The notes under the pieces: generated by a model
The model's database searches: none
Told to the model about the DNA's origin: nothing
The model's input: only the letters and a program-made list of their open reading frames with translations
Shown: positions 287-64,000 of the stretch, in pieces
Layout of the letters: every line of letters begins with the position of its first letter
How positions within the stretch are numbered: position 1 is the first letter of the stretch
Source: Desulfurococcales archaeon
Lineage (GTDB): Archaea; Thermoproteota; Thermoprotei_A; Sulfolobales; Fervidicoccaceae
DNA length: 64,000 nt
Reading direction: 5' to 3'
NCBI GenBank assembly: GCA_027014955.1
Contig: JALWDA010000073.1
Coordinates: forward strand, 12,926-76,925
Position numbers and translations under genes: made by a program

Positions 287-1141
287 TTGGTTAAGAGTAG
301 GAAGCTTGGGGAGGCCCTCAAAACCAGGGTTGAGGACATTACGGTTAATGACTTCCCCTCAGCTGACAAAGACCAGAGTATTGCGGAGGCCCTCAGACTG
401 ATGGAAAAGTATGGGACAGACAGGATAGTGGTTACAGAGAAAGGGGCCCCCATTGGGGTTATGACCAAAAAAGACCTAGTCAACAAACTTCTAATGGAAA
501 GAACAAGGACCGCCTCATTTTCAGCACTCCATATATCAAGCTTCTTCACTAATAGCACAATATCTGTTGAGGCAAGCAAGTATTTGTCAGACGCAGCTAA
601 GGAGATGGAGGCTAACGATATAAGCAGCCTGTTCGTGGAAAAGCTTGGTTCGATAAGAGGTTTTTTCACCAAGAGAGAGCTTGTAGGTAAGCTTGCCGAC
701 GTTGATGATGTGAGAGCTCTTGAGGTGATGTCACCCGTCGTGCATTTAGCAAGGCTGGACGAAAGGCTGCTGCACATCAGGCAATTAATGCTGAGCAAGA
801 GAGTTTATTTCATGCCTGTAGTAAGCGACTCAGGCAAACTTGTGGGAACCATAAGTATAGACGACATAGCGGACGCGGTCATACAGTTTTATCGATCAGT
901 GCCTGAAAGGTATAGAAGGGAGAAAAAACACAAGCTCTTCGTTCATGGATATTATAACAGGACACAACCAGTGGCGGGTCTTGACACAAAGCTTTCAGAA
1001 ATAGTAGGGCAACTGGTCAGCAAGGGTGTAAGAGGTGTCGTTGTTATGGAGGGGGACAATGTGAAGGGCCAAGTCACTATTGATGACATTACAAGGCTAG
1101 TGGCGCTAGGCAGCCATGAGGTCCAAAGAAGAGAACAGTAG
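287..1141 (+). CDS. CBS-domain protein with tandem Bateman modules (about four CBS repeats)
   Basis: 284-aa ORF with repeated CBS-like segments (DRIVVTEKGAPIGVMTKKDL, ISSLFVEKLGSIRGFFTKREL, YFMPVVSDSGKLVGTISIDDI, RGVVVMEGDNVKGQVTIDDI). Confidence 0.75.
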   Translation: MVKSRKLGEALKTRVEDITVNDFPSADKDQSIAEALRLMEKYGTDRIVVTEKGAPIGVMTKKDLVNKLLMERTRTASFSALHISSFFTNSTISVEASKYLSDAAKEMEANDISSLFVEKLGSIRGFFTKRELVGKLADVDDVRALEVMSPVVHLARLDERLLHIRQLMLSKRVYFMPVVSDSGKLVGTISIDDIADAVIQFYRSVPERYRREKKHKLFVHGYYNRTQPVAGLDTKLSEIVGQLVSKGVRGVVVMEGDNVKGQVTIDDITRLVALGSHEVQRREQ

Positions 1142-22922: not shown

Positions 22923-23936
22923 TTGTCGCAGTATAGGGTCCTAAGGCTATGTTGGTGGTGTGCCTTGCAGGCTTTTACAAGCTTGACTGGGGGGTTCCCA
23001 AGGACGAGAAGCTATGCCGACGCTGTAAGGAGGAGGGAAAAGGGTAAGCTCGGCGTTGACGAGTTTTGGGACACGGTTGTTAGGGAAACCAAGCGGAGCT
23101 TGGCGAGGACGGCTCGTTATCTTGACTATCTTACGGATGGCATGTACCTGTGCGACGACATCTTCAATCCCTTCATAAAGGACATAGAAGGGGTTAAAAG
23201 AGGCTGGCTTGTAAGGTTTTATGATAACAACTTTTTCGTGAGAAACCCCATAGTTAGGGGAAAGATAAGACTCAGACCAAGTCCATCCACTGTTGATGAG
23301 AGGATAAGGCTTATCAAAGTGCTTTCCAAAGACAATGCCTTCAAGGGAAAAAGCTTCAGGTTGCCCGTACCGGGTCCACTTACATTCACTGACTTCTCTG
23401 TTGTAGAAACCATTGATTACAGTGATAATGCACAGCTCGCAGCCGACTATGTAAAGAACGTCCTCAACCCTCTGATAGATTACGTGAGAGGAAAAGGACT
23501 GGTCATAGAAATTCATGAGCCAAGCTTGAGCACTACTTTAACAGGCAATGTAGACTGGCAGGAAGTCTACAGCAACCTAGTGGGCGACAAGGAGAGCGTT
23601 CACATTATCCAATATTTCAACCAGCCCCCCTTAGATGCCCTAAGGACCCTCTCAAGCAGGTTCACAATAGGTGTAGACCTGGTAGAGAACCCGGGCCTGC
23701 TGGACAACCTTGACGAATGGCTAGGTGAGAAGCCCGTTATCCAAGCAGGTGTGGTTGATGCCCGGAACACGAGGCTAGAAGACCCGGGGGAAACGGCCCG
23801 CCGTCTCAAGCGCCTCTCGGACAAGGTGGATGTGATTATTATTTCAAGCAATACTACGCTTGAGTTTCTCCCCGAAACCGTGGCCCACAGGAAGACGCGC
23901 TTGCTAGCTAGGATAAAAAACAAACTCGTTAGGTGA
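22923..23936 (+). CDS. MetE N-terminal-domain-like protein (non-catalytic half of a split cobalamin-independent methionine synthase)
   Basis: The GGFPRTRS...DEFW start resembles the MetE (beta/alpha)8 N-terminal GFPR motif. There are no His/Cys zinc ligands. It lies immediately upstream of the catalytic-domain gene. The start is uncertain, with several in-frame TTG codons at 22923-22980. Confidence 0.6.
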   Translation: MSQYRVLRLCWWCALQAFTSLTGGFPRTRSYADAVRRREKGKLGVDEFWDTVVRETKRSLARTARYLDYLTDGMYLCDDIFNPFIKDIEGVKRGWLVRFYDNNFFVRNPIVRGKIRLRPSPSTVDERIRLIKVLSKDNAFKGKSFRLPVPGPLTFTDFSVVETIDYSDNAQLAADYVKNVLNPLIDYVRGKGLVIEIHEPSLSTTLTGNVDWQEVYSNLVGDKESVHIIQYFNQPPLDALRTLSSRFTIGVDLVENPGLLDNLDEWLGEKPVIQAGVVDARNTRLEDPGETARRLKRLSDKVDVIIISSNTTLEFLPETVAHRKTRLLARIKNKLVR

Positions 23937-23942
23937 TAAGAA

Positions 23943-24962
23943 ATGGTAGATTATGTACTCCCCTCGCTCCCCACAAGCGTTATCGGAAGCTATCCTCGGC
24001 CAACATGGCTCCGTAGAATGATAAAATACTACAGAATGGGGAGGATAACAGAGGATGCAGTGCAGGAGGCCTACGATGACGCAGTTACAACCATTGTCAG
24101 GGAACAGGAGCTCGCAGGAGTCGACATACCTGCAGATGGCGAACAGCGTAGGGATGAGATGGTAGAGTACTTCGCCCACCAGATAAAGGGCTTCAAGTTC
24201 TACGGACCCGTCAGAGTTTGGGGTAACAACTACTTCAATAAGCCAGCTGTAGTCGCTAAACTAGAATATCCTGGGCCAATGACCGTGGAAGAATACCTTT
24301 TCCTCCGACAAGTCAGTACCAGGCCCATAGTTAAGGTAACCATAACGGGCCCCTATACGATAGCGGACTGGAGCTTCAACGAGTACTATCCATCCAAGGA
24401 GGACCTTGTAAAAGAGCTCTCTAATATAATAAACCAGGAACTCCACGCGTTAGTGGACCATGGTGCACAGTTCATACAGATAGACGAACCAGCATTGACA
24501 ACACACCCCGATGAGGTAGAATGGGCGGTGGACCTCATAAACAGGACTGCCAAGGGCATCGATGCTAAAATAGGTCTGCACGTTTGTTACAGTAACTATG
24601 ACCTCCTCTTCCCCTACATTGACGAGTTCTCGGAGATAAGCCAGTTTGCACTAGAATTCGCCAATAGGGGGTTTAGTGACCTTCATAAGCTCAAGGGGTT
24701 CTCAAAAGAACTTGGCTTCGGAGTGATAGATGTGCATAACAGGCGCGTGGAGTCTCCCGAAGAGGTTGCCCGCGCCATTAGGAAGGCCATGAAGTACATT
24801 GAGCCGGAGATGCTTTACATAAACCCTGACTGCGGGCTCAAGCTGCAGCCCAGGAGCGTTGCCAGGAGGAAGCTGGAGAATATGGTTCGTGGAGTCCTGA
24901 TGGTCAGAGAGGAGCTCGTGAAACGTGGGATAAGGAGTATTCCCTTCAGAAAGAGGGTTTGA
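23943..24962 (+). CDS. metE: Cobalamin-independent methionine synthase, catalytic (MetE C-terminal) domain protein
   Basis: PTSVIGSYPRP start, DGEQRR and IQIDEPAL motifs, and zinc ligands in LHVCYSNY (His-x-Cys) and NPDCGLK. Confidence 0.85.
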   Translation: MVDYVLPSLPTSVIGSYPRPTWLRRMIKYYRMGRITEDAVQEAYDDAVTTIVREQELAGVDIPADGEQRRDEMVEYFAHQIKGFKFYGPVRVWGNNYFNKPAVVAKLEYPGPMTVEEYLFLRQVSTRPIVKVTITGPYTIADWSFNEYYPSKEDLVKELSNIINQELHALVDHGAQFIQIDEPALTTHPDEVEWAVDLINRTAKGIDAKIGLHVCYSNYDLLFPYIDEFSEISQFALEFANRGFSDLHKLKGFSKELGFGVIDVHNRRVESPEEVARAIRKAMKYIEPEMLYINPDCGLKLQPRSVARRKLENMVRGVLMVREELVKRGIRSIPFRKRV

Positions 24963-25080: not shown

Positions 25081-26145
25081 ATGAACGTGAACCCAGAGTC
25101 CAGGGCAGGCATAGTCGGGTGGGGGGCCTACGTTCCCAAGTATAGGCTCAGGATGGAGGAAATTGTGAGACTATGGGGCTTCCCAGAGGGAACGCCAAAG
25201 GGCCTAAATGTTATAGAGAAAAGTGTTGACAACCTGGACGAAGACGCGCTCACTATGGGATATGAGGCCGCTAAAAACGCTATAAAAAGAGCTGGCATAG
25301 ACCCGAAGGAGATACAGGCGGTCTTCTTCGGTACGGAGTCCAAGCCCTACGCTGTGAAGCCCAGCGCAACCGTGATAGCGCAAGCTCTGGGAATAACCCC
25401 TGATACCATGGCAAGCGACCTTGAGTTCGCTTGCAGGGCTGGCAGCGAGGGCATAAAGTCAGGCATAGGCCTAGTTGTCTCGGGGATGGTAAACTACGCT
25501 CTGGCAATAGGCAGCGATACCGCCCAGGCGAACCCTGGTGACGTCCTAGAGTTCACTGCTAGTAGCGGGGCAGTTGCATATATAATAGGGCCAAGCGAGG
25601 CCTCTACAGCCGTTTTCGAGGCCTCGTACACCTATGTCACAGACACCCCTGACTTCTGGCGAAGAGCCAACAGCCCCTATCCCCTGCACGGAGAGGGCTT
25701 TACCGGAGAACCCGCGTACTTCGCCCACATTATAGGTGCTGTCAAGGGGCTTCTAGATAAAACCGGTCTCACCATCAACGACTTTGACTACGCTGTATTC
25801 CATCAGCCCAATGGCAGGTTCCCCATAAAAGTGGGAGAGAAACTTGGCTTCCCCCGAGAGAAAATACTCCCCGGCCTCGTGACTCCCTATATTGGCAACA
25901 CTTACAACGCTAGTGCCCTACTTGGGCTGGCAAAGCTGCTGGATACCGTGGAACCAGGTGTCAGGATACTAGTCGCACCCTTTGGAAGCGGAGCGGGCTC
26001 CGACGCCTATAGTATACTCGTAACCGACAAGGTGGAAGAGGTTAGGGAGAGGGCCCCACCCCTCAGCTATTATATTGATAACAAGGAGTACGTTGACTAC
26101 GCGATCTATGCAAAGAACCGCAGGATAATAATGAAGATAAGGTGA
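25081..26145 (+). CDS. Hydroxymethylglutaryl-CoA synthase (archaeal type)
   Basis: GTESKPYAVKP, catalytic Cys in LEFACRAGS, FHQPNG and GNTYNAS motifs. It is the first gene of the HMGCS-thiolase-DUF35 operon. Confidence 0.9.
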   Translation: MNVNPESRAGIVGWGAYVPKYRLRMEEIVRLWGFPEGTPKGLNVIEKSVDNLDEDALTMGYEAAKNAIKRAGIDPKEIQAVFFGTESKPYAVKPSATVIAQALGITPDTMASDLEFACRAGSEGIKSGIGLVVSGMVNYALAIGSDTAQANPGDVLEFTASSGAVAYIIGPSEASTAVFEASYTYVTDTPDFWRRANSPYPLHGEGFTGEPAYFAHIIGAVKGLLDKTGLTINDFDYAVFHQPNGRFPIKVGEKLGFPREKILPGLVTPYIGNTYNASALLGLAKLLDTVEPGVRILVAPFGSGAGSDAYSILVTDKVEEVRERAPPLSYYIDNKEYVDYAIYAKNRRIIMKIR

Positions 26146-26149
26146 AGAG

Positions 26150-27292
26150 GTGGACACCGTGGTGTACATACGGGCCATAGGACTCTCCAAGGTAGAACGC
26201 GCCTACGGAAAAGGTCTCCAGGAGAAGTTCTACGAAGCAGTCGTTCCCATAATGGAGACTACAGGTCTCAGCGAGGTGGACACGGTAATTGTGTCCAACA
26301 GCTTCGCCTCACTGTTGCAGTCCCAGAACCTACTCGCATCCCTGCTAGTTGAGGACCTGTCCCTCCTCAACGTCACAACCCTAACTGTTGAAAACGGTGG
26401 TGCAGGGGGTCTAACGGCCCTTCACCTTGCCAGGTCGCTGATAAAATCAGGCGAGTCCCGCAACGTTCTTGTCGTGGGTGTTGAGAAGACTACCGACTAT
26501 AACAGCGAATACTACAACGCAGCACTATCCCAGCTGACAAACGCGGAGTTCGAGGCAATCTACGGAGCCAACATTATAAGCCAGTTCGCAATAATCGCGA
26601 GAGCCTACCTAGAGAGGCATAGTGTAAGCGAGGAGCTATTCGCAGAATGGCCAGTGTTTATGCACGAGAACTCTCTCAACGCAAAACACTCCCAGCTTCG
26701 TTTTAAGATAACAGTGGACAAGGTGCTGGCGTCGGACTATGTCTCCTCCCCCCTGAGAGTCTTGCATAGCCCTCCCTTCGGAGACGGTGCGGCCGCCTTG
26801 CTTTTGTCTGGAGAGCGGGGCGAGGATTCACTCGCGCGTATCGAGATGACCGCAGTCCTCAACGATACCATGGAGCTATCGCTAAGGGGAGACCTGGCCA
26901 CACTACCCTCAGTCAAGAGGCTTGTCGAGAGGCTGCAGAAGAAAACCTTCCCCCCCAACCAGGCAGACTACATAGATGTACTAGACAAGTACAGCATAGC
27001 AGGGCCCCTCATGCTGGAAACCATGGGAATAGCGGACCCTGGACGCATCCTCTACGAGATAAAAGAGGGCAAGTTCAGGCCAGGCGACAAACCAGTGATA
27101 AACCACACTGGTGGCGCCAAGGCACGTGGGCACCCAGTGGGAGCCACGGGCGTCTACCAGGTCGCTGAAGCTGTGGCGGCGATGCACGGACTCCAGGGGG
27201 TAAGAGGCCTGGACTATGTGGAAAAAGCCTGGATTTTAGGCATAGGGGGCCCCGGCACGGTTGCCGCTGGGGCCATTGTAAAACGTGTCTAG
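26150..27292 (+). CDS. Thiolase-family protein (acetyl-CoA acetyltransferase homologue) lacking any cysteine
   Basis: Thiolase motifs are retained: VVGVEKTTD, HENSLNAKH, FGDGAAALLL, NHTGGAKARGHPVGATG and GIGGPG. The nucleophile position reads TVENGGAGGLTAL, and the 380-aa translation contains no Cys. Confidence 0.85.
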   Translation: MDTVVYIRAIGLSKVERAYGKGLQEKFYEAVVPIMETTGLSEVDTVIVSNSFASLLQSQNLLASLLVEDLSLLNVTTLTVENGGAGGLTALHLARSLIKSGESRNVLVVGVEKTTDYNSEYYNAALSQLTNAEFEAIYGANIISQFAIIARAYLERHSVSEELFAEWPVFMHENSLNAKHSQLRFKITVDKVLASDYVSSPLRVLHSPPFGDGAAALLLSGERGEDSLARIEMTAVLNDTMELSLRGDLATLPSVKRLVERLQKKTFPPNQADYIDVLDKYSIAGPLMLETMGIADPGRILYEIKEGKFRPGDKPVINHTGGAKARGHPVGATGVYQVAEAVAAMHGLQGVRGLDYVEKAWILGIGGPGTVAAGAIVKRV

Positions 27293-27731
27293 GCGGAGGG
27301 TGGGTCTTATGGAAAGTCTTTCAATATCAAGGTTCTGGAGATATAGGAGAGCCCACTATAGGCTAACCGGGAAAAAGTGTCTAAGATGCGAAAGGGTCTT
27401 CTACCCGCCCAAGCGCTCCTGCCCCTACTGTGGGTCGATGGACTTGGAAGACTACGACCCTCCTGAGAGGGGGGAGATAATAGCCTGGACCAAGCTATAC
27501 GAAACAGGGACGCCCTACACACCCTACAGGCCAATCTACCTAGCCTTAGTCAAACTAGGTGATATGACCGCCCTTCTCCAGCTAACCGACGTCACGGACG
27601 AGAAGAAACAGCTGAGAAAAGGAGCCCCAGTAGAGCTCGTGTTCAGGAGAATAAAAGAAGACGGATCCCACGGGCTGATATACTATGGTATAAAAGCGAG
27701 GCCAGCACAGCCCATCGAGACACAGGAGTAA
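27285..27731 (+). CDS. DUF35 OB-fold / zinc-ribbon protein (thiolase-HMGCS scaffold family)
   Basis: Rubredoxin-like CLRCERVFYPPKRSCPYCGS followed by an OB-fold-like C-terminus. It overlaps the thiolase gene by 8 nt. Confidence 0.85.
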   Translation: MSRRRVGLMESLSISRFWRYRRAHYRLTGKKCLRCERVFYPPKRSCPYCGSMDLEDYDPPERGEIIAWTKLYETGTPYTPYRPIYLALVKLGDMTALLQLTDVTDEKKQLRKGAPVELVFRRIKEDGSHGLIYYGIKARPAQPIETQE

Positions 27732-27795: not shown

Positions 27796-28122
27796 ATGGG
27801 TATGCCCAAGCCCAAAAAACTCATACTAGACACCGCAGAACACCACCCCCACCACAAACAATGGATGAAAATGGCTAAAGAAGTGGCCGAGACCCTTGGA
27901 ATAGAACTCGAAGTAAAGAAAGAAGACTACGAATTCGCAATACAACACGGGGTAACAGACGAGCTGGGAATGGCAGGGCTCCCCCAAATAATGGTCGAAT
28001 TAGAAGACGGCAAAATAGTCCCACTACTACACGAAATACCCCTCGACGAAAAGTTCCAACCAGACTTTGAAAAAGGAAAACAAGTCATCCTACAAAAGAT
28101 AGAGGAGCTCTCCAAACAGTAA
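27796..28122 (+). CDS. Small thioredoxin-fold-like protein without a CXXC motif (His-rich site)
   Basis: 108 aa. KLILDTAEHHPHHKQW(helix)...GLPQIMVELEDGKIV follows the Trx-fold order, including a cis-Pro-like GLP loop. The redox-motif position is occupied by EHHPHH. Confidence 0.5.
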   Translation: MGMPKPKKLILDTAEHHPHHKQWMKMAKEVAETLGIELEVKKEDYEFAIQHGVTDELGMAGLPQIMVELEDGKIVPLLHEIPLDEKFQPDFEKGKQVILQKIEELSKQ

Positions 28123-51793: not shown

Positions 51794-52132
51794 AGAAGGT
51801 CACCTCACAATAGGGGTTAGGGTTCCCGCACTTTTAATGAATATATAATTTTTGTGGAGAATAAATGTTTACTCTAGAACTTTATTGGGGTAACCCTTAG
51901 TACTGGGTCACGGTATTTACCATTTTGGCAACTATTGCTAAAAACCAAGAACACTTACTACAAGGCATTTTCAAATAACTTGAACAGGTGATACGGGGTT
52001 CAGAGAGAGGAAGATGAGGACCACGTCTTCACAGGGCGTGCCTCAGCGAGTAGGGGCCTCAACATCCCCCAATAGCTTGTAAGCAGATCATGCCTTAATT
52101 ATAGTGTGCCCCCGATTCAGGGACGGGCAATC

Positions 52133-53158
52133 CTAGTAGGGTGCATTCCATCCCTCGGGGCACCCATTGCCGAACCTGATGGGTTTCTCCAGTTGGGATA
52201 ACAGGACGACTCTGCTGGGCTTGCTCTCGCTCCTAACAGGGTACCCTGTGGCCTTCGAGAGTTTTTCTGAAAACTGCCTCACCTCGTCATGGGTGGGCAT
52301 GTTGCTACGGTTAAGCCTCTGCATGCTTGCCCCCACGTACATGTATGCTTTGGCCTCAATGTAGGTGGGCTGCATAAGGTCCACTAGCTTCGCGAAGCCC
52401 TCTACAGCCTTGTCATCCATGTTTATGCCCTTGATGAGAGTTATTCTCATGACCGTGGGGCTAGGGTAGTCTCTTAGTCCCTTTAGGGTCTCCAGCGTCA
52501 GCTCCCACGCTCTCTTGACTAATGGTCTATCTAACCACATGTACATTTCCTTGTTATACGCCTCTACGCTCACGTATAGTTGGCTGGGCGGCTCCTCCAT
52601 GTTGAGTATCATGTCAGGTCTAACACCACGTGTCACGAGGAAGGTCGTCAGACCTCTCTTGTGGAAGGCCTTAATTAGATCGGGGAGCTTGTCATAGAGC
52701 GTGGGCTCCCCTGTTAGGCTAATCGCAACATGTTTGGGTCTCGTGGCCTCCTCGTAATACTTCCTATTCGCCCTGGGATTCCCCTTGTAGCCCGTAAGCA
52801 ATTTAACGTGGGTCTCTATGACCTTGTCCGCGAGCTCCTCGACATCCTCCTCAGGATACTGGGGCATTCTGGCTTCATCCCAGTACACCCCCACGTCCTG
52901 CGGCCTCAGCCGCCAGCAGTGTATACAAGCATTCCAGCACCAGTATGCGGCGGGGCTCATCTGGATACAGCGGTGGCTCTCAATGCCATAGAACTTGCAC
53001 TTGTAGCAGAACCGGTTCTGTGTAAGCGCATATCTTGTCCACGCGCACGTCTTGACAACCGTATGTTCTCCCACAAAGTGGTAGCCTTGCTTCGTCATTA
53101 TCTTCCTCAGTATATCATAGGCTCCCTGCTTGTCACTAACAGGTCTCAGGCTGAGCAC
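52133..53158 (-). CDS. taw1: tRNA 4-demethylwyosine synthase (TYW1/Taw1), radical SAM
   Basis: Radical SAM cluster CWNACIHC, ISLTGEPTLY, and conserved N-terminal cysteines (KTCAWTRYAL, CYKCKFYG). Confidence 0.88.
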   Translation of the reverse strand: MLSLRPVSDKQGAYDILRKIMTKQGYHFVGEHTVVKTCAWTRYALTQNRFCYKCKFYGIESHRCIQMSPAAYWCWNACIHCWRLRPQDVGVYWDEARMPQYPEEDVEELADKVIETHVKLLTGYKGNPRANRKYYEEATRPKHVAISLTGEPTLYDKLPDLIKAFHKRGLTTFLVTRGVRPDMILNMEEPPSQLYVSVEAYNKEMYMWLDRPLVKRAWELTLETLKGLRDYPSPTVMRITLIKGINMDDKAVEGFAKLVDLMQPTYIEAKAYMYVGASMQRLNRSNMPTHDEVRQFSEKLSKATGYPVRSESKPSRVVLLSQLEKPIRFGNGCPEGWNAPY

Positions 53159-53347
53159 CTTAACACCTCGATCCCCACGGGATTACAAGACGCCATTGTA
53201 TGCATTAGTCGTGTACCTATTTAATAAGGTCTCGTAAGTAAGCATGCCAGGTTATGAATAGCCGGAACTGATACAGTGTGGAGAAGGCGTAAACGTGCAC
53301 AAATATATCCCATATTCCTAGATAGAGAGGGATTGGTGACACCTGCT

Positions 53348-54073
53348 ATGGGTCCACCCTTCCATATCTTGGCTAAGAAGGGAGATGTAGCCGAAAGGGT
53401 GATAGTTGCAGGAGACCCCGCCCGGGTAAAGCAACTTGCACAAATGCTAGACAATCCCCGGCTGGTTAACGAGAACAGGCAGCTACTGGTATACACGGGA
53501 GAGTACAAGGGGATCCCCCTAACCGTGGCTACCCATGGGATAGGCTCGGGAAGCGCGACTATCGTGTTCGAGGAGCTCAGGATGCTTGGGGCCAGGCTAA
53601 TGATACGGCTAGGTACGGCGGGCGGCATGTCACCCGACTTGAAAGTCGGAGACTTCATAATAGCGACAGGAGCAGCGACCTTATGCAACGGGAACTCCCT
53701 TGGAATGTATATGCCCGGCTACTGCCTACCCGCATCCCCCAGCCCTGATGTGACGATGAACCTCATAAAAGAGGTGGAGCATTCTGGAGAGAAGGCTATA
53801 ACTACGCCTGTATTCAGCAGTGATGCCTTTTACGCTGAGGACCCTGACTTTGCCAAGAAATGGAGCGATAAGGGAGTCAAGGCCGTCGAGATGGAGTGTG
53901 CCAGCCTCTTTGCTCTTGGCTGGATGAGAGGCTTCAAGACGGGAGCCCTCCTCATGATAAGCGATATGTTGGTGGGGGAGAAGACAGAGCTACTAACAGC
54001 AGAGCAACTTGCACCCAGGGTGGAGAAGGCTTCAAGGATAGTGTTCGAGGCAGCTATTAAGACGCCCGTCTAA
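53348..54073 (+). CDS. Purine/uridine nucleoside phosphorylase (PNP_UDP_1 family)
   Basis: ERVIVAGDPARV, TGEYKGIPLTVATHGIGSGSA, RLGTAGG and VEMECASL motifs. I prefer the ATG at 53348 over the upstream in-frame start at 53276. Confidence 0.85.
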   Translation: MGPPFHILAKKGDVAERVIVAGDPARVKQLAQMLDNPRLVNENRQLLVYTGEYKGIPLTVATHGIGSGSATIVFEELRMLGARLMIRLGTAGGMSPDLKVGDFIIATGAATLCNGNSLGMYMPGYCLPASPSPDVTMNLIKEVEHSGEKAITTPVFSSDAFYAEDPDFAKKWSDKGVKAVEMECASLFALGWMRGFKTGALLMISDMLVGEKTELLTAEQLAPRVEKASRIVFEAAIKTPV

Positions 54074-54270
54074 GAGGTCACATACTTGGGCATAACAATA
54101 GCCGTCACAGATCTCCCTACTAAGCTGTTTTTCTCTATAATGATTATTTTATGGCAGTTGGAAAACACGAGATATTGTAACTAGACTATTAGGGAATGGT
54201 CGTGGATGCTAGACTCTGGGCGAATTCTTAATAACTTATGTGAAGCGTCAAAAGGGGGAGATTACAAGAG

Positions 54271-54876
54271 ATGGGCAGAAACCCCGCACCCTTGCCCCAG
54301 GAATGGTACGCAAGAGACCCCAAAAGAGTCGCCCTAGAACTTCTGGGAAAGATACTGGTGAGGAAGACGCCTGATAACGTCACTATAAAGTGCATGATAA
54401 CGGAGACTGAGGCCTACTATGGTCCCGAGGACCCGGCGTCGAGAGCTAGAAAGGGTGGAGACCTTCGCGAGGTTATGGGAGGGCCGGTGGGACACGCGCT
54501 TGTCTACGGGGTTCACAAGCAGTGGCTACTTAACGTAGTTGCCCATAAGCCGGGCGAGTATGGAGCAGTCCTCTTCAGAAGCTGTGAGCCGCTGGAGGGC
54601 CTTGAGCTTATGATGAGGAACAGGGGTGTGGATAATGTTAAGCTGCTGACCACGGGGCCTGGACGCCTTACGCGGGCACTGTTGATTGACAAGAGCTTTC
54701 ATAAGAAACCCATGTATGTCGTGTCACATGGCCTTTGGATAGAAGATGAGGGTTTTGACGTGAGGGAAAGTGATATTGTCTCGAGCCATAGGATAGGTGT
54801 TAGGGAAGACTTGCCCGAGAAGCTAAGGTTTATCCTTAAGACAAGCCCCTATATATCTAAACCTCCCCGGGGATGA
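54271..54876 (+). CDS. mpg: DNA-3-methyladenine glycosylase (AAG/Mpg family)
   Basis: ITETEAYYGPEDPASRA, GHALVYGVHKQWLLN and TGPGRLTRAL motifs. Confidence 0.88.
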   Translation: MGRNPAPLPQEWYARDPKRVALELLGKILVRKTPDNVTIKCMITETEAYYGPEDPASRARKGGDLREVMGGPVGHALVYGVHKQWLLNVVAHKPGEYGAVLFRSCEPLEGLELMMRNRGVDNVKLLTTGPGRLTRALLIDKSFHKKPMYVVSHGLWIEDEGFDVRESDIVSSHRIGVREDLPEKLRFILKTSPYISKPPRG

Positions 54877-55325
54877 AGTCTATGAGTAAGGAAGACGAGG
54901 GGCATGTTATAGAGGGCGTCCCAGGCCATGTGGCATGGCGGGGCTGGGCAAGGGAGTTACAGCGCATGCTGAGGAGCTATGGCCTTTCCTATGAAGCCGA
55001 ATTAGACCACACCCGTATTCACCTCAAGGGCGTCCTCATACAAGTATACCCTGACCCCAAGGGCTACGTGATAGACGCCAGCCTGCCACTGCCACTAGGT
55101 GGCGAGGACCCTGATTTCCTTTCTGAAATCCTCGAGGGCTTTAGAACAATACTTACCCTGATAAACAGCGCCCGTGGGGTGAGACCCGTCTACGAGCTAG
55201 ATACCAGCCTCCCCTATAATCCTTCCCTCCATACAATCATTCACTATAGCGACCCAGATAGCCTAATTTCCACCATGAAGACGTTTCTCGACACAATGTT
55301 CAGTGCAAGCGAGGAGGAAAAATAG
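54873..55325 (+). CDS. Hypothetical protein (150 aa), translationally coupled to mpg
   Basis: An ATGA start/stop overlap with mpg. No recognisable motif. Confidence 0.5.
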   Translation: MKSMSKEDEGHVIEGVPGHVAWRGWARELQRMLRSYGLSYEAELDHTRIHLKGVLIQVYPDPKGYVIDASLPLPLGGEDPDFLSEILEGFRTILTLINSARGVRPVYELDTSLPYNPSLHTIIHYSDPDSLISTMKTFLDTMFSASEEEK

Positions 55326-55473
55326 CCCTGTAATCCACTTACCCTTATCTTGATACGTCGAACATCATTGTGAAAAAGGACAAAAAACGCTCAAAGACTA
55401 GGTTGGACACGGTCGTTTTAAGATAAAAAAGCATACATTGAAGCCTCGTAGTTGGATAAAAATACAGATAATG

Positions 55474-55962
55474 TCAGCTACTGGACGCTACCTCCATCGC
55501 TCTCTTAACTACCTCGTCATAGTCTGGTTCGACAAGAGGGTCGTCGCTAACCCATTTCCACGCGACCTTGCCCTCCTTGTCTATTATGAAGACAGCCCTC
55601 TTGGCTAGTCCTTTGAGGCCCTTAAGGTCCTCTAGCACGACGTTGTATTTCTTTATAACCTCCTTGTTGAAGTCGCTTAGAAGGTCAAAGCCCAACCTGT
55701 TCTTCTCTTTGAACTCTTTCAACGAGAAGGGAAGGTCAACGCTTATTCCCACGACCTTCGCGTTAGCCTTTTCGAGCAGTGCCATGCGGTCCCTGAAATT
55801 GCAGAGTTCGTTGGTACACACGGGGCTAAAGGCTGCGGGGAAGAATACAAGTATCACGGGTTTCCCATCTTTTAGGAGGTCCCCCAGGCTGACGGGCTGG
55901 AAGTCTTGGTTGTACAACGTGAATTCAGGAGCCTTTTCCCCAACTTCTACCATTTCAACCAC
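55474..55962 (-). CDS. bcp: Peroxiredoxin (Bcp-type thiol peroxidase)
   Basis: FFPAAFSPVCTNELCNF, with the peroxidatic and resolving Cys in the Bcp CxxxxC arrangement. Confidence 0.9.
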   Translation of the reverse strand: MVEMVEVGEKAPEFTLYNQDFQPVSLGDLLKDGKPVILVFFPAAFSPVCTNELCNFRDRMALLEKANAKVVGISVDLPFSLKEFKEKNRLGFDLLSDFNKEVIKKYNVVLEDLKGLKGLAKRAVFIIDKEGKVAWKWVSDDPLVEPDYDEVVKRAMEVASSS

Positions 55963-56245
55963 CCTTGAATCCGTTTGAGAGTATGGTTTATTTCGGAAAT
56001 ATCGTCGTCAGGGGTTTATAGGGTGGTGTAATTACCTTCCATGACACGGGCTTTCTCGAGTACTCGCAGAGTGTATATATACGTGGTAAATAAGCGCCTT
56101 AACACTCAGTCATCAGTTATGTGCAGAATATAGTAATTATTCTTAATAATTCATAAATGAAAAAGTTTATTCACGCCAATCCTTAAACCATCCCAATAAT
56201 AGCCCCCCTAATTATACGAACAAAGCGGGGCGAAGTGAGGAAGCC

Positions 56246-59117
<2,872 letters not shown>

Positions 59118-59320
59118 TTACTCACCCGATTTTACAAGGCCCGTCTAGGAGTCCAGTTTTTTATCAATATTGTTTAATCACACCGTCTATCTTTGTCTCC
59201 CTTCTGCACCCGTTTGCCCCAAGCATAGTCTGTAGCAAGTAATTGAAATTAAGGGGAAGAGGGCAACGTAATTTACTAGATCAATATGTATTCCAAGCCA
59301 AAGCCCCATGTAGGAGAAGG

Positions 59321-61075
59321 GTGGCCTTCTTGGTTGAGACGATAAACCATGACGTGGTAATAATAGGTTCTGGCCTGGCTGGCCTCAGGGCAGCCGTGGA
59401 GATAATGAGGATGTTCGAGGAGAAGGTCAACGTAGGCATAATATCCAAGGTACAGTTGATGCGAAGCCACAGTGTGTCGGCCGAGGGTGGCACCGCGGCT
59501 GTCCTCTACCCTGACGAGGGGGACAGTATAGCGCTTCACGCGTGGGATACAGTTAAGGGCTCTGACTTCCTCGCCGACCAAGATGCTGTCTGGACCCTGG
59601 TATCCCACATGCCTCAGGAAATATACCTCCTTGAACACTGGGGGATTCTCTGGAGCAGGAGAGAAGACGGACGCATAGCCCAGAGGTATTTCGGAGGCCA
59701 GACCTTCCCTAGGACAGTATACGCTGGTGACAAGACTGGGCTCTTCGAGATGCAGACCCTATATGGAAAACTACAGGAATATGATAACTACGAGAGGTAC
59801 GACGAGTGGTTCGTGACTTCATACGTTATAGAGGATGGCGAGTATAGGGGCGTAACAGCGATTAATATGAAGGATGGGAACCTGTATCTGTTCAGAAGCA
59901 AGGCGGTCATCATAGCAACAGGTGGAGGGGGTAGGGTCTACGGGTTTAGCACATACGGTCACACTGTTACGGGAGACGGCCTCGCTATGGCCTACAGGGC
60001 GGGCATACCGCTAAAAGACATGGAGTTCTACCAGTTCCACCCAACCGGTATAATACCCTCAGGAATATTGGTCACGGAGGGAGCCAGGGGAGAAGGGGGC
60101 ATTCTTCTGAACAAGAACGGGGAACGGTTCATGAAAAAATATGCACCCACTAAGATGGAACTCGCCCCCAGAGACATAGTCTCAAGGGCCATGTTCACCG
60201 AGATGAAGGAGGGAAGGGGATTCAAGGACGAAGAAAGCGGGTTAGAGTACCTCCTTCTAGATCTGAGGCACCTCGGCGAGGAAAAGCTCAACGAGAGGCT
60301 CCCCCTGGTCAGGGAAGTTGCAATAAAGTTCGCCGGAGTGGACCCAGCCGAGGAACCCATACCAGTTAGGCCCGTGGCCCACTACACCATGGGGGGCATA
60401 CACGCGGATATAAGGGGACGGGTTCTCGACGCGCAGGGCAGATGGATAAAAGGCATGTGGGTGGCAGGTGAAGCGGCTGCCTATAGTGTCCACGGTGCCA
60501 ACAGGCTGGGCTCAAACAGTACAGCTGAGTGCCTGGTATGGGGCAAGATAACGGGTAGGGAAGCCGGCCTATACGCATTGAAGTCGCCCTCACTACCACC
60601 TATGCCGTCGAATGAAAAAGTCGCGGGCGAGGAAAAGAGGCTCTTCGATGGACTTCTCAAGAGGGAAAGTGGCAAGGAAACCGCGTACCAGATAAAGAAG
60701 GAGCTTAACCATGTAATGGACACACATGTCTACGTTTATAGGAATGAGGAGGGGTTGAGAAAGGCACTGTCGAAGATAAGGGAGCTTAAAGAAAGGTTCA
60801 AGAACGTGGCTCCCAGCGACAAGTCCCGTATTTACAATACTGATTTCATAACAGTGCTCGAGACAGAGAACCTGCTGGACATAGCCGAGGTGATAGTAGT
60901 GGGAGCACTGGAGCGTAGGGAGAGCAGGGGAAGCCACGCGAGGACTGATTACCCCAAGAGGGACGACGAGAACTGGCTCAAGCACACCCTTGCTACGTAT
61001 AGTAGAGACGGGCCTGTGCTCAGCTACTGGCCCGTGACCATAACAACTTGGAAACCCGTTGAGAGAAAATACTAG
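59321..61075 (+). CDS. sdhA: Succinate dehydrogenase / fumarate reductase flavoprotein subunit
   Basis: FAD motif DVVIIGSGLAGLRAA, covalent-FAD segment RSHSVSAEGG, HPTG and RESRGSHAR. The start is uncertain: GTG at 59321 (used here), TTG at 59330, or TTG at 59243. Confidence 0.92.
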   Translation: MAFLVETINHDVVIIGSGLAGLRAAVEIMRMFEEKVNVGIISKVQLMRSHSVSAEGGTAAVLYPDEGDSIALHAWDTVKGSDFLADQDAVWTLVSHMPQEIYLLEHWGILWSRREDGRIAQRYFGGQTFPRTVYAGDKTGLFEMQTLYGKLQEYDNYERYDEWFVTSYVIEDGEYRGVTAINMKDGNLYLFRSKAVIIATGGGGRVYGFSTYGHTVTGDGLAMAYRAGIPLKDMEFYQFHPTGIIPSGILVTEGARGEGGILLNKNGERFMKKYAPTKMELAPRDIVSRAMFTEMKEGRGFKDEESGLEYLLLDLRHLGEEKLNERLPLVREVAIKFAGVDPAEEPIPVRPVAHYTMGGIHADIRGRVLDAQGRWIKGMWVAGEAAAYSVHGANRLGSNSTAECLVWGKITGREAGLYALKSPSLPPMPSNEKVAGEEKRLFDGLLKRESGKETAYQIKKELNHVMDTHVYVYRNEEGLRKALSKIRELKERFKNVAPSDKSRIYNTDFITVLETENLLDIAEVIVVGALERRESRGSHARTDYPKRDDENWLKHTLATYSRDGPVLSYWPVTITTWKPVERKY

Positions 61076-61098
61076 GCAGTAGATGGAGGTGCGATAGG

Positions 61099-61572
61099 TT
61101 GGGGGAGAAGAGGAAGCCCCGGTTCCTTGAAAACCGCTTGGGTATTATGGGTAACATTGTTCCCTGGGTCCTGATGATACGCGACAACCCCGAGCGGGTG
61201 GCCTTTGTCCTCCACAGGCTCACTGGCCTGCTGCTGATAATATACCTGCCTGTACATATATTTGTGACGAGTATGACTGTGAACCCGCAGAAGTGGGAAG
61301 ACTTCCTACGACTTGAAGAGAACCCGCTTGCCCAGTTCTTCCTATGGATACTCTTCGGCTCCATCGTCTTCCACGGGCTAAATGGGATACGCCTACTGCT
61401 AGTAGAGGGGCTGGGCAAGGGAATAGGAAAGCCAGAACCCCCAGAGCCTCCCTACAAGCCCACAAGCCTTTCATCTGCCCAGAGAAAATGGCTCTACGCG
61501 GTATTCGCTATTTGGCTGATCGTGTGGATAGTGGGAGGCATTATACTTTTTAGAGAATTCGGCTGGGTCTAG
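61099..61572 (+). CDS. sdhC: Succinate dehydrogenase membrane subunit (cytochrome b-like, SdhC)
   Basis: 157 aa with three TM helices and a HRLTG motif. The TTG start lies 8 nt after GGAGGTG. Confidence 0.75.
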   Translation: MGEKRKPRFLENRLGIMGNIVPWVLMIRDNPERVAFVLHRLTGLLLIIYLPVHIFVTSMTVNPQKWEDFLRLEENPLAQFFLWILFGSIVFHGLNGIRLLLVEGLGKGIGKPEPPEPPYKPTSLSSAQRKWLYAVFAIWLIVWIVGGIILFREFGWV

Positions 61573-61585
61573 GAGGTGCATCACC

Positions 61586-61948
61586 GTGCCTCGGGAATCT
61601 ACTCTCCACCTACTCCTTTACGCTACTGCGGGGCTTCTAGCCGTCTTCCTCACAATACACGTTGCCCTCCATGCACCGGGCCTATTTTATGACACCTACA
61701 AGGAAAGCGTGCAGAGGGAGAGTGTCCGTAGGAACTACGAGAACTTCGGATGGGCACTAGTAGCACTGTTAATAGTAGCCGTTATCCACGGCCTCGTAGG
61801 TCTCAGGGGGATACTGCTAGAGCTGAGGCAGGGACCTAGATGGGAGGCCTTCGTCAACTTCCTTGTAGTGTTCCTAGGCGCGTACATGTTGGGTCTGGGC
61901 ACATACACCCTCCTAACATGGCTTGGGATAATGCACTTCGGGGGGTGA
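61586..61948 (+). CDS. sdhD: Succinate dehydrogenase membrane anchor subunit (SdhD)
   Basis: 120 aa with three TM helices. The GTG start lies 8 nt after GGAGGTG. It sits between sdhC and sdhB. Confidence 0.7.
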   Translation: MPRESTLHLLLYATAGLLAVFLTIHVALHAPGLFYDTYKESVQRESVRRNYENFGWALVALLIVAVIHGLVGLRGILLELRQGPRWEAFVNFLVVFLGAYMLGLGTYTLLTWLGIMHFGG

Positions 61949-61954
61949 GAGCGT

Positions 61955-62902
61955 ATGGGCATCAATGCTAACGGAAGACCCGCTACGCGAGTTGTCAAGA
62001 TAAGGGTACGGAGGTACGATCCAGAGACTGGTAGGAGGTGGTGGCAAGAGTATAGAGTGGAGGCCAAGAAGGGAACCACCGTTCTTGACGCGCTGCTCAA
62101 GATAAAGGCGGAGCAGGACCACACCCTAGCTATGAGGTACTCGTGCAGAATGGGTGCTTGTGGCAGCTGTGGCATGCTTATAAACAAGATGCCCCGCCTC
62201 GCATGCGAGACCCAACTCCTGGAGCTCGGGACAGACACTGTCACCATAGAGCCCCTGCCCAACTTCCCCGTCCTGAGGGACCTGATAACAGACTTCGGCG
62301 ACTTCTTCAAGAAGCATAGGGACATCATGCCCTACATAGTGAGGGAGAGCAAGAAAGAGAACGAGGAGCCCTATAGGGAGTACTACATGCCACCCGACGA
62401 GCTGAACAAGATTATCAGGTACTCCTACTGTATAATGTGCGGCCTATGCTACGCCGCTTGCCCCGTGGTCGCTATCGACAAGAAGTTCCTAGGACCACAG
62501 GCACTGGGACAGGCATACAGGTGGGTCACCGATGTTAGGGACGAGGGTCTTAGGCTCAGGCTGGAAAAGGTAGATGACAAGCACGGTGTATGGAGATGCC
62601 ACTTCGCTGGCTCCTGCTCCGCAGCCTGCCCCAAGGGAGTTGACCCCGCTCAGGGAATACAGCTCCTCCGCTCAAAGCTGGTCGCGCTCACCGCCGGGGC
62701 TAGAAGAGATAAGAAACCGACCCATGTGGCGACTCCAACCACCGTACGCTATGTCGATGTGGGGGATGCTCCCAAGCCTACCGTGGAGGATAAGAGCCTG
62801 CTCGTCAAGCACCTCGAGGAGACGGCCCAAGAGCTGGAGCAGGACCTTCCATACGTTGCACAGGCTCTGAGGGACTACCTCCGCACAATAACGTCGTCAT
62901 AA
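61955..62902 (+). CDS. sdhB: Succinate dehydrogenase iron-sulfur subunit, with a C-terminal extension of about 70 aa
   Basis: Cluster motifs CRMGACGSCGM...C, CIMCGLCYAACP and CHFAGSCSAACP. Confidence 0.92.
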   Translation: MGINANGRPATRVVKIRVRRYDPETGRRWWQEYRVEAKKGTTVLDALLKIKAEQDHTLAMRYSCRMGACGSCGMLINKMPRLACETQLLELGTDTVTIEPLPNFPVLRDLITDFGDFFKKHRDIMPYIVRESKKENEEPYREYYMPPDELNKIIRYSYCIMCGLCYAACPVVAIDKKFLGPQALGQAYRWVTDVRDEGLRLRLEKVDDKHGVWRCHFAGSCSAACPKGVDPAQGIQLLRSKLVALTAGARRDKKPTHVATPTTVRYVDVGDAPKPTVEDKSLLVKHLEETAQELEQDLPYVAQALRDYLRTITSS

Positions 62903-62903
62903 A

Positions 62904-62926
62904 TATTTTTCATGCCGTATGGCATA
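62904..62926 (+). terminator. T-run plus short hairpin between convergent genes
   Basis: TTTTT (62906-62910) is followed by ATGCC-GTAT-GGCAT (62912-62925), directly after the sdhB stop. Confidence 0.3.
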
Positions 62927-62978
62927 GCCACTTATCGTGGAAAATAATGAGGCTATAAAACTAAACCAGAGGCCCTTA

Positions 62979-64000
62979 TCAGGCTGTTAAATCCCTAGAA
63001 TGCCAGTCAACTTCTTCAAGCGCGCCCCCTAGGCTTATTATTTCTCTGACCTCGCTCACTCTTGCATCCAGCCTCCTGTCTCCAAAAGTGTTTGAAAAGT
63101 AAAGCTCCCCTGACCTGGCGAGGGACTCGCTTCCCGTCTTTCCCGAGAGCCATATCAGCTCTGCAACTGCTATTGTTTTAGCCAGTGTATCGAGGACGTT
63201 TTTAGCCATCCATTGCGCCTTGTAAGAGTCCTCTCCTATAGAGCGGATAGCCTTTCTCGCTATCTCTAGGAGTTCCTCCCCCAACCTATGGCTGGCAACC
63301 CAGTAACTGGACGTGACCATGTTTTCAAGGTCTTCCAACATACTTTTATGAGCGTTCTTCTTAACCATAGCCTCGAGCATATCCAGGGCCTGTACATTGC
63401 TCGTCCCCTCCCAGATTGGAGTTATCAGAGCCTCCCTGTGCCACCTCTCTATGGGGAACTCGTGGAGGAAACCAATACCTCCGTAGACTTCCATTGCCCT
63501 CCTGGTCACGTCCGCGGCTATGTCTGCGGTGAAGTTCTTGGCCATGTGCGTGAGTAACCTGGCATAGTGATACTTGTCGTCATATGGGGGCTCTTTCTTC
63601 CATGACTTGTCAAAAGAATCTATCGCCTTGAGTGTTAGCGCTAGGCCTGCTTCGATGCCTAGCTCTGCTTCGAGCAGGTCCCGGGCGAGGAGCGGGTGTT
63701 CTATAATCCTCTTTCCAAACGCCCTTCTTACCTGCGAGTAACCGTATGCCTCAATATATGCTTTTCTTGCAATACCGAGCGCCCCTATAGAGTTGGCGAG
63801 CCTTGAAACCATGAGGTCCTCCATGGTGTAGTAGATACCATTCTCGGGCTCGCCTATGAGATGTGCCTCGCTCCCAATAAGCTCGACCTCTCCCGTGGGA
63901 ACAGAAATTGTCCCGCTTTTCCATTTGAGCCTCCTAACCCTGTAGTTCAGAAACCCCTTACTATCCAGGCGGGGGACGGCAAACAGTGCCAACCCTTTCG
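62979..64000 (-). CDS. Acyl-CoA dehydrogenase, C-terminal part (gene continues right of the window)
   Basis: ACAD middle and C-terminal domain patterns (FAVPRLD..., RLANSIGALGIARKAYIEA, RRAFGKRIIEHPLL, YGGIGF, EGTSNVQ). The frame is open to the window edge. Confidence 0.85.
   Translation of the reverse strand, partial: KGLALFAVPRLDSKGFLNYRVRRLKWKSGTISVPTGEVELIGSEAHLIGEPENGIYYTMEDLMVSRLANSIGALGIARKAYIEAYGYSQVRRAFGKRIIEHPLLARDLLEAELGIEAGLALTLKAIDSFDKSWKKEPPYDDKYHYARLLTHMAKNFTADIAADVTRRAMEVYGGIGFLHEFPIERWHREALITPIWEGTSNVQALDMLEAMVKKNAHKSMLEDLENMVTSSYWVASHRLGEELLEIARKAIRSIGEDSYKAQWMAKNVLDTLAKTIAVAELIWLSGKTGSESLARSGELYFSNTFGDRRLDARVSEVREIISLGGALEEVDWHSRDLTA

Follow-up and report, generated by a model that had tools for sequence, protein, structure and literature searches.

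A thiolase homologue without its nucleophilic cysteine in a mevalonate operon of a Desulfurococcales archaeon

Can a thiolase homologue that has lost its nucleophilic cysteine still serve the operon in which it is encoded? The question is raised by a 64,000-nucleotide stretch of DNA from a hot-spring Desulfurococcales archaeon (GenBank assembly GCA_027014955.1, contig JALWDA010000073.1, positions 12,926 to 76,925), which is referred to here as the window. The gene for such a homologue lies between the genes for an HMG-CoA synthase (HMGCS) and a DUF35 protein. Archaea are currently described as overcoming the unfavourable thiolase equilibrium almost universally with a thiolase/HMGCS/DUF35 complex, in which acetoacetyl-CoA is channelled directly into HMG-CoA synthesis.

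A preliminary description of the window suggested that the protein is a pseudoenzyme retained for a structural role and that another gene encodes the real thiolase. This is supported by the checks of family and residues, by the losses in its clade, by the selection acting on the gene and by the thiolases found on the same scaffold. We consider it probable that the protein is a dead orthologue of the acetoacetyl-CoA thiolase subunit, kept since HMGCS needs the assembled complex, and that acetoacetyl-CoA comes from elsewhere. The features of the operon are the following.

25081..26145, + strand: HMGCS, 354 aa (Pfam ACP_syn_III_C, Thiolase_N, HMG_CoA_synt_C)
26150..27292, + strand: Cys-less thiolase homologue, 380 aa from GTG 26150 (Pfam Thiolase_N, Thiolase_C_1)
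26390..26410, + strand: former nucleophile loop E81-N-G-G84-A-G-G87, from the DNA reading and alignments; the canonical loop is E-A-A-C-G-S-G
26981..26992, + strand: L278-D-K-Y281 at the position of the HDxF motif, His lost, from alignments
27131..27133, + strand: GHP-motif histidine (His328), which the window protein has but which is not conserved within its clade
27285..27731, + strand: DUF35 protein with zinc ribbon and OB fold, 148-aa open reading frame (Pfam zf-ChsH2, OB_ChsH2_C)

Catalytic residues, fold and selection

The 380-aa open reading frame (ORF), which starts with GTG, encodes no cysteine at all. The preliminary description had reported this correctly, but the absence as such is unremarkable. 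Cysteine accounts for 0.62% of the residues in the ORFs of the window, the probability of finding none in 380 aa is approximately 0.09, and 20 of the 58 ORFs are likewise free of cysteine. The absence from the whole protein was therefore rejected as a statistical anomaly. It is the loss at a specific position that counts, and canonical orthologues mostly carry one cysteine only, the catalytic one.

The family motifs quoted earlier for this protein were all found (TVENGGAGGLTAL, VLDKY, GVEKTTD, MHENSLNAKH, GDGAAALLL, GGAKARGHPVGATG and GIGGPG). The top three matches to the sequences of the PDB in phmmer were the P. furiosus thiolase (PDB ID: 7YVY; 2e-46), the thiolase of the thiolase/HMGCS complex of Methanothermococcus (M.) thermolithotrophicus (PDB ID: 6ESQ; 2e-42) and 4YZO (1e-34). 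In these alignments, VENGGAGG falls onto IEAACASGG of 7YVY and VEAACASGS of 6ESQ, and VLDKY falls onto VHDAF and VHDCF, respectively. The loop is encoded by GAA AAC GGT GGT GCA GGG GGT, with Gly84 as the GGT at 26399-26401. AlphaFold2, given an alignment of 83 sequences, produced a model with a predicted local distance difference test score (pLDDT) of 96.8. Its best Foldseek match is 6esq_A (TM 0.93, root-mean-square deviation 2.1 Å), and its sequence identity to 4YZO in the Foldseek comparison is 27%. Because the PDB alignments and the model agree, we assign Gly84 to the position of the nucleophilic cysteine and Leu278 to that of the histidine in the HDxF motif. The comparison with characterised archaeal thiolases thus places Gly84 at the nucleophile position, and the assignment to the thiolase family is upheld by both sequence and model.

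The protein has the fold of the SCP2-type acetoacetyl-CoA thiolase (ACAT) of the archaeal complex, the histidine of the GHx motif and an operon with HMGCS and DUF35. It has neither the nucleophilic cysteine nor the HDxF histidine. It is homologous to the archaeal ACAT and occupies the ACAT position in the genome, and it lacks two defining catalytic features. Because both of these residues are missing, it should not be classified as a thiolase.

The adjacent HMGCS looks catalytically intact. The cysteine within EFACRAGS, pointed out previously, is present, and the complete E86-C118-H241-N273 tetrad is retained. Its sequence identity to HMGCS from other lineages is 64-75%. The DUF35 protein has a zinc ribbon of the form C-x2-C...C-x2-C, as read from the ORF translation. 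The 4-nt gap and the 8-nt overlap reported between the three genes follow from choosing the longest ORFs, although the tight packing of the genes stands. ATG 27309 has a GGAGG Shine-Dalgarno sequence 6-10 nt before it, and the gene calls in databases give 377 aa for the thiolase homologue and 140 aa for DUF35. On these grounds, the true start of the thiolase homologue is probably GTG 26159 (377 aa), and that of DUF35 is likely ATG 27309 (140 aa).

The gene is under strong purifying selection and is not a pseudogene. Copies that are 99% identical occur in NCBI GCA_027002425.1, ENA ERZ23491050 and Logan SRR33939662. The metagenome-assembled genome (MAG) JALTXS01 (locus L013) has one that is 94% identical. 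Between the window and L013, the thiolase homologue shows 82 synonymous and 18 non-synonymous differences, with a ratio of non-synonymous to synonymous rates (dN/dS) of 0.052 at a dS of 0.56. The dN/dS of HMGCS in the same comparison is 0.029. The loss of catalytic residues in a protein that keeps its fold, evolves under purifying selection and has conserved partner genes is the pattern of a pseudoenzyme subunit.

An error of sequencing or assembly has practically no chance of being the explanation, and neither has a gene that was inactivated recently and is being lost. The glycine codon GGT is only one substitution away from the cysteine codon TGT, as an artefact would have it. However, at least four further assemblies and 16 diverged orthologues show the same residues, and the second catalytic residue, the HDxF histidine, has been replaced too, as has the GHP histidine in several members of the clade. 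The reading frame is free of frameshifts and stops, and the dN/dS of 0.05 does not fit decay. The comparative data refute both the artefact and the pseudogene.

Operons of related archaea

The loss extends to the relatives, a matter that the preliminary description had raised. The clade considered here comprises 17 sequences, namely the window protein, 13 database proteins and three loci from a species scan, and it has a bootstrap value of 100% in a neighbour-joining tree. The 13 database proteins, which are the nearest and of which some are labelled Fervidicoccus or Fervidicoccaceae, are 42-57% identical to the window protein. All 13 have the nucleophile loop E-N-G-[G/S/E]-A-[S/G]-G, and none has the HDxF histidine. 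Across the clade, the nucleophile column holds G, S or E and the HDxF histidine column holds L, M, T, C, S or P, so that all 16 of the other sequences lack both residues. The GHP histidine is replaced by D, F, N or Y in several members (GDP, GFP, GNP, GYV, GYI). It is not under constraint in the clade, though His328 is kept in the window protein. No replacement cysteine is conserved elsewhere in the clade sequences.

Cys-less sequences outside the clade keep both histidines and have Asp, Gln, Ala, Gly or Glu at the cysteine position. The remaining family members read VEAACGSGG, HDAF and GHP. An Ala-to-Gly change (A83G) beside the lost cysteine is common to all three main Cys-less groups, and the Cys-less sequences nest together in the tree, in which deep nodes are weak. 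The common A83G and the nesting suggest one main loss of the cysteine, followed by progressive decay. An Asn-type lineage looks like an independent loss. In two MAGs labelled Nitrososphaerota and Thermoproteota (L063 2124-4742 and L085 33-2549), the thiolase next to HMGCS reads VEAANASG, IGEYSS and GDP. All three catalytic residues are gone there, and the adjacent HMGCS retains the E-C-H-N tetrad. A single protein of the Ignisphaera clade (P0089) carries Phe in place of the nucleophilic cysteine (VEASFGSGG) and is otherwise canonical, which points to a recent loss or an error.

Cys-less members are frequent in the wider family. Approximately 80 of the best 150 cluster representatives (50% identity; P0325-P0472) have no cysteine at the nucleophile column, in a ranking that is biased towards the query and in which fast-evolving proteins are split into more clusters. 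The residues in that column are D in 23, G in 16 (query included), E in 14, S in 10 and P in 6, with others in the remainder.

The neighbours of thiolase genes across species were counted in a scan with two peptide patterns over one genome per species, and the best 80 of 333 hits, which do not include F. fontis Kam940, were used. The order is HMGCS-thiolase-DUF35, often followed by HMG-CoA reductase (HMGR), whether or not the thiolase has its cysteine. It is the same with canonical thiolases (Pyrodictium abyssi, L011; L008), with a Gln-type thiolase (L010), with the Glu-type thiolase of Acidilobus (L004) and with the Gly-type proteins of the window and Fervidicoccus (L001). Because the order is identical, the Cys-less proteins are positional orthologues of the thiolase of the mevalonate operon. 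Thiolases that adjoin HMGCS lack the cysteine in 22 of 40 cases (G 4, D 2, E 13, Q 1, N 2), and those that do not adjoin HMGCS retain it in 40 of 40. The E-C-H-N tetrad is kept in 46 of the 46 HMGCS proteins examined beside canonical or Cys-less thiolases. A test scan of viral contigs found no relatives.

In Acidilobus, the operon consists of HMGCS, Cys-less thiolase, DUF35 and HMGR, with an acyl-CoA dehydrogenase gene downstream. A conserved gene for a 672-aa fusion of 3-hydroxyacyl-CoA dehydrogenase and enoyl-CoA hydratase (3HCDH/ECH) lies 1-2 kb upstream on the opposite strand (L004 5825-7843; L044, L052, L057, L070). Its proximity fits a supply of acetoacetyl-CoA by β-oxidation-type enzymes.

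The rates of change differ between the partners. At comparable HMGCS divergence, canonical pairs have pairwise identities of 0.64 for the thiolase and 0.65 for HMGCS. The corresponding values are 0.51 and 0.67 for Glu-type pairs, and 0.45 and 0.72 for pairs within the window clade. The identity of DUF35 is not lowered in the Cys-less lineages. The thiolase homologue diverges approximately twice as fast as its HMGCS partner, and constraint is selectively relaxed on it. A similar picture emerges from the columns whose conservation among canonical reference proteins is at least 90% (96 in thiolase and 139 in HMGCS). The Asp/Gln group keeps 78 of the 96 thiolase columns and 137 of the 139 HMGCS columns, the Glu group 54 and 110, and the window clade 47 and 134. 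Among the thiolase columns lost are those of the nucleophile, HDxF, GHP and C-terminal glycine loops, together with residues 119-154 and position 366.

Four assemblies of relatives (CAZZLT01, JAJHRE01, JAGGUC01 and JAGGTW01) each hold an operon of HMGCS, Glu-type thiolase and DUF35. In addition, a canonical, HDAY-type Cys-thiolase is encoded with DUF35 at a second locus in each of them. An ORF of 259-300 aa precedes the HDAY-type thiolase at nine of nine loci (L055, L064, L068, L075, L077, L082, L086, L087, L089). This ORF keeps the N-terminal signature of HMGCS, and it lacks the E-C-H-N tetrad in the two that were checked (the operons at L075 9105-11532 and L077 3403-5854). It has no Pfam hit (checked for L077), and hhalign matches the degenerate protein to the HMGCS profile with a probability of 98.2% (E 4e-14, 257 columns). 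Two reciprocal half-dead complexes would thus be present in each of the four genomes, and this looks like reciprocal loss after duplication of the operon. A search by name turned up no member labelled Fervidicoccus in the family of HDAY-type Cys-thiolases. The second operon is the mirror image of that in the window, and it provides a precedent in relatives for keeping a catalytically dead partner.

Thiolases on the scaffold and the proposed role

A search of the 64-kb window with three thiolase queries (tblastn) found no second thiolase, the gene itself being the sole match. However, the window belongs to a scaffold of 103,852 bp (ENA ERZ23491132 scaffold_40). Locus L093 is 100% identical to window 51955-64000 over 12,046 nt and is therefore part of the same scaffold. 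As the preliminary description had anticipated, Cys-containing thiolases are encoded elsewhere in the genome, two of them on this scaffold, 3.5-7 kb past the 3' end of the window. They form part of a β-oxidation-like cluster (L093 11025-20948, 3.5-9 kb beyond window position 64000) with the following members.

62979..63992 of the window, - strand: acyl-CoA dehydrogenase, 3' part, first gene of the cluster (Pfam Acyl-CoA_dh_1)
L093 15540-16736: classical (bacterial-type) thiolase, motifs VCASG, NEAF, GHP and CHG
L093 17305-18495: SCP2-type thiolase, motifs EAACASGS, HDCF and GHP, approximately 43 kb downstream of the Cys-less gene
L093 18502-19050: DUF35 protein of the SCP2-type thiolase

Past the end of the window, the order is the rest of the acyl-CoA dehydrogenase, a zinc-type alcohol dehydrogenase, a fumarase, the classical thiolase, an SCP2 protein, the SCP2-type thiolase with its own DUF35, a second acyl-CoA dehydrogenase and a 3HCDH/ECH fusion. 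The classical thiolase matches 4WYR (4e-90) and the biosynthetic thiolase of Zoogloea (PDB ID: 1DLU; 4e-82). The SCP2-type thiolase matches 7YVY (3e-78) and 6ESQ (8e-76), and it is 30% identical to the thiolase homologue of the window.

In the Methanothermococcus complex, the thiolase does not dissolve and HMGCS shows no activity when either is on its own, the two proteins share the CoA site at their interface, and the H284A exchange in the HDxF motif abolishes the formation of HMG-CoA from acetyl-CoA, according to the account of Vogeli 2018 cited in PMC12960953. Since Gly84 and Leu278 replace the cysteine and the histidine, the window protein would be unable to form an acetyl-enzyme or to stabilise the Claisen transition state, and acetoacetyl-CoA could not be made in situ and channelled. 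The protein may persist because HMGCS and DUF35 depend on it structurally and for the CoA site. Its complex would then perform the second step only, in which acetyl-CoA and acetoacetyl-CoA give HMG-CoA. Acetoacetyl-CoA would be supplied by β-oxidation-type enzymes encoded nearby on the contig, the likeliest candidates being the classical thiolase, the SCP2-type thiolase/DUF35 pair and the 3HCDH/ECH fusion.

Several points weigh against this proposal. His328 is retained in the window protein together with the family-invariant polar residues K113, Y153, H172, D279 and N318, and ligand binding or residual activity is possible. We infer both the assembly of the complex and the inactivity of the thiolase homologue from sequence. 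We likewise infer the link between the thiolases of the β-oxidation-like cluster and mevalonate synthesis, and with it the identity of the supplier of acetoacetyl-CoA. In a pathway that does not channel, the unfavourable thiolase equilibrium must be overcome in some other way. The phylogeny is a neighbour-joining one with weak deep nodes. None of the four Fervidicoccus-like genomes within the best 80 of 333 hits showed the mirror-image operon, in a scan that could not reveal distant paralogues in Fervidicoccus-like MAGs.

Could the protein still be an enzyme with changed chemistry? The preliminary description had named different chemistry as its alternative. Cys-independent condensation, decarboxylation of malonyl-CoA (as in KSQ/CLF and TbSLP) and retro-aldol cleavage (as in Ltp2 and Sal) come into consideration. 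True enzymes with a thiolase fold and no cysteine do exist in Ltp2 and Sal, TbSLP shows weak malonyl-CoA decarboxylase activity, and some sister lineages of the window protein have exchanged Cys for Gln, as in KSQ/CLF. The strong purifying selection would also be expected of an enzyme, and four residues (E161, H206, Y281 and N131) are newly fixed in the clade. However, all of the former catalytic positions vary within the clade, which is unexpected for a new active site, and half of the conserved columns of canonical thiolases are lost, with the losses clustered in the active-site loops. The nucleophile position in the window holds Gly rather than Gln. Where the aldolases have their catalytic tyrosine, the window protein has Leu278, and the clade as a whole shows L, M, T, C, S or P. 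All of the genomic context is that of the mevalonate pathway (HMGCS, joined in relatives by HMG-CoA reductase), and neither a hydratase nor any other new partner appears in it. With the catalytic positions drifting and the aldolase signature absent, changed chemistry has no positive support, and we consider it unlikely.

We also give little chance to mixed assemblies, in which the Cys-less protein would pair with a Cys-thiolase, such as the SCP2-type thiolase/DUF35 pair 43 kb downstream, and preserve channelling in a KS-CLF-like manner. Thiolases are obligate dimers, the known complex contains thiolase dimers (PMC12960953), and the same genome does encode a paralogous Cys-thiolase with its own DUF35. 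The two proteins are merely 30% identical, however, and the paralogue sits with that DUF35 in a β-oxidation-like cluster. In the relatives, moreover, a degenerate HMGCS-like protein is encoded as a partner for the live thiolase, an arrangement that speaks for two complexes rather than one. The dead, structural subunit thus remains the reading that we prefer.

If it is correct, a dead but conserved subunit in Fervidicoccus-like, Acidilobus and several other Thermoprotei lineages means that channelling cannot operate there, and the question arises where the acetoacetyl-CoA for their lipid precursors comes from. Metabolic reconstructions of these genomes should leave the genes annotated as "acetyl-CoA acetyltransferase" beside HMGCS out of their count of thiolases. 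We suggest, with considerable doubt, that the dead-thiolase form is a widespread and ancient alternative entry to the mevalonate pathway, in which duplication of the operon and reciprocal catalytic loss uncoupled acetoacetyl-CoA formation from HMG-CoA synthesis. The membrane lipids of many Thermoprotei would then be fed by free acetoacetyl-CoA from β-oxidation-type enzymes and not by a channelled thiolase reaction. A stronger version would have the Cys-less subunit gain a ligand-gating or a new catalytic role.

The other neighbours of the operon are described here for completeness. The DUF35 protein of the window is a stand-alone protein of 140-148 aa, and the neighbourhood consists of HMGCS, MetE-like genes and HisRS. 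Two adjacent ORFs of approximately 338 aa (22923-24962) lie directly upstream of HMGCS. Their counterparts in the 99%-identical locus L005 match Meth_synt_1 and Meth_synt_2, so that they resemble a split or duplicated MetE-like pair. Directly downstream of DUF35 lies a 108-aa ORF (27796-28122) with no Pfam hit. Gene calling also predicts it in the near-identical loci L005-L007, and it is absent at the same position in Fervidicoccus L001. Five genes for CBS-domain proteins stand in tandem at and just before the 5' end of the window (window 287-1141; L094 6572-10855). Inspection of the left flank on the scaffold showed nothing relevant to the thiolase question.

Comparison with known systems

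Other proteins with a related fold and no nucleophilic cysteine have been described. ST0096 of Sulfurisphaera tokodaii (PDB ID: 4YZO) is, like the window protein, archaeal and of the SCP2-type thiolase fold. In its family, which is highly conserved, 120 of 120 members examined share VDNTSGSGG, in which the Ser is invariant, and have retained HDM and GHP, whereas the window protein reads VENGGAGG, LDKY and GHP. Membership of the same family was rejected on account of the different invariant Ser motif and the different genomic context. The ST0096 family (P0125-P0244) spans Sulfolobales, Thermoplasmata and Marsarchaeota. In S. acidocaldarius (L012 6001-7397), the ST0096-type gene does not adjoin HMGCS, and an 89-aa ORF without a Pfam hit comes after it in place of HMGCS or DUF35.

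Ltp2-ChsH2(DUF35), Sal-Shy(DUF35) and TbSLP are alike in having a Cys-less SCP2-thiolase fold, and the aldolases among them pair with DUF35. In the retro-aldolases Ltp2 and Sal, the catalytic tyrosine belongs to a YD[HC][FY] motif at the HDCF position (PMC12329534). The window protein has LDKY there, and the first residue is variable in the clade. Ltp2 and Sal are found among steroid or hydratase genes and use the DUF35 domain of a hydratase, whereas the window has mevalonate genes and a stand-alone DUF35. Identity with these retro-aldolases was judged unlikely, as both the catalytic tyrosine and the hydratase-DUF35 or steroid context are absent.

The KS-CLF (KSQ) pair of type II polyketide synthases is a condensing-enzyme system in which a homologue without the active-site cysteine is kept as an obligate partner. 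It belongs to another branch of the superfamily. CLF has a defined Gln, as in the Cys-to-Gln exchange of some sister lineages of the window protein, and forms a heterodimer with a live KS; the window protein carries Gly and is partnered with HMGCS.

The closest likeness is to the thiolase of the M. thermolithotrophicus complex (6ESQ/6ET9), with which the window protein shares the three-gene operon, the SCP2-type fold (TM 0.93) and the DUF35 partner. The cysteine and the HDxF histidine are present there, and Gly84 and Leu278 take their places in the window protein. Our literature search, which left subscription literature aside, found no description of Cys-less thiolases in archaeal HMGCS operons and no published precedent for a live HMGCS with a dead thiolase.

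The bacterial complexes PhlABC, MucABC and PfACAT/HMGS-DUF35 contain a dead HMGS subunit and a live thiolase (PMC12960953, PMC6392133), and PfACAT/HMGS-DUF35 catalyses thiolysis only (PMC12960953). They are alike in being tripartite and in keeping one thiolase-fold subunit without catalysis for assembly. The archaeal operons of degenerate HMGCS, Cys-thiolase and DUF35 (L075, L077 and others) look like direct counterparts of these PhlABC-type complexes. In the window, the roles are reversed, with a dead thiolase beside a live HMGCS instead of a dead HMGS. The operon studied here would thus be a variant of the known complex and a natural example of an architecture that outlives the catalysis of one of its subunits, found in some genomes as a reciprocal, half-dead pair.

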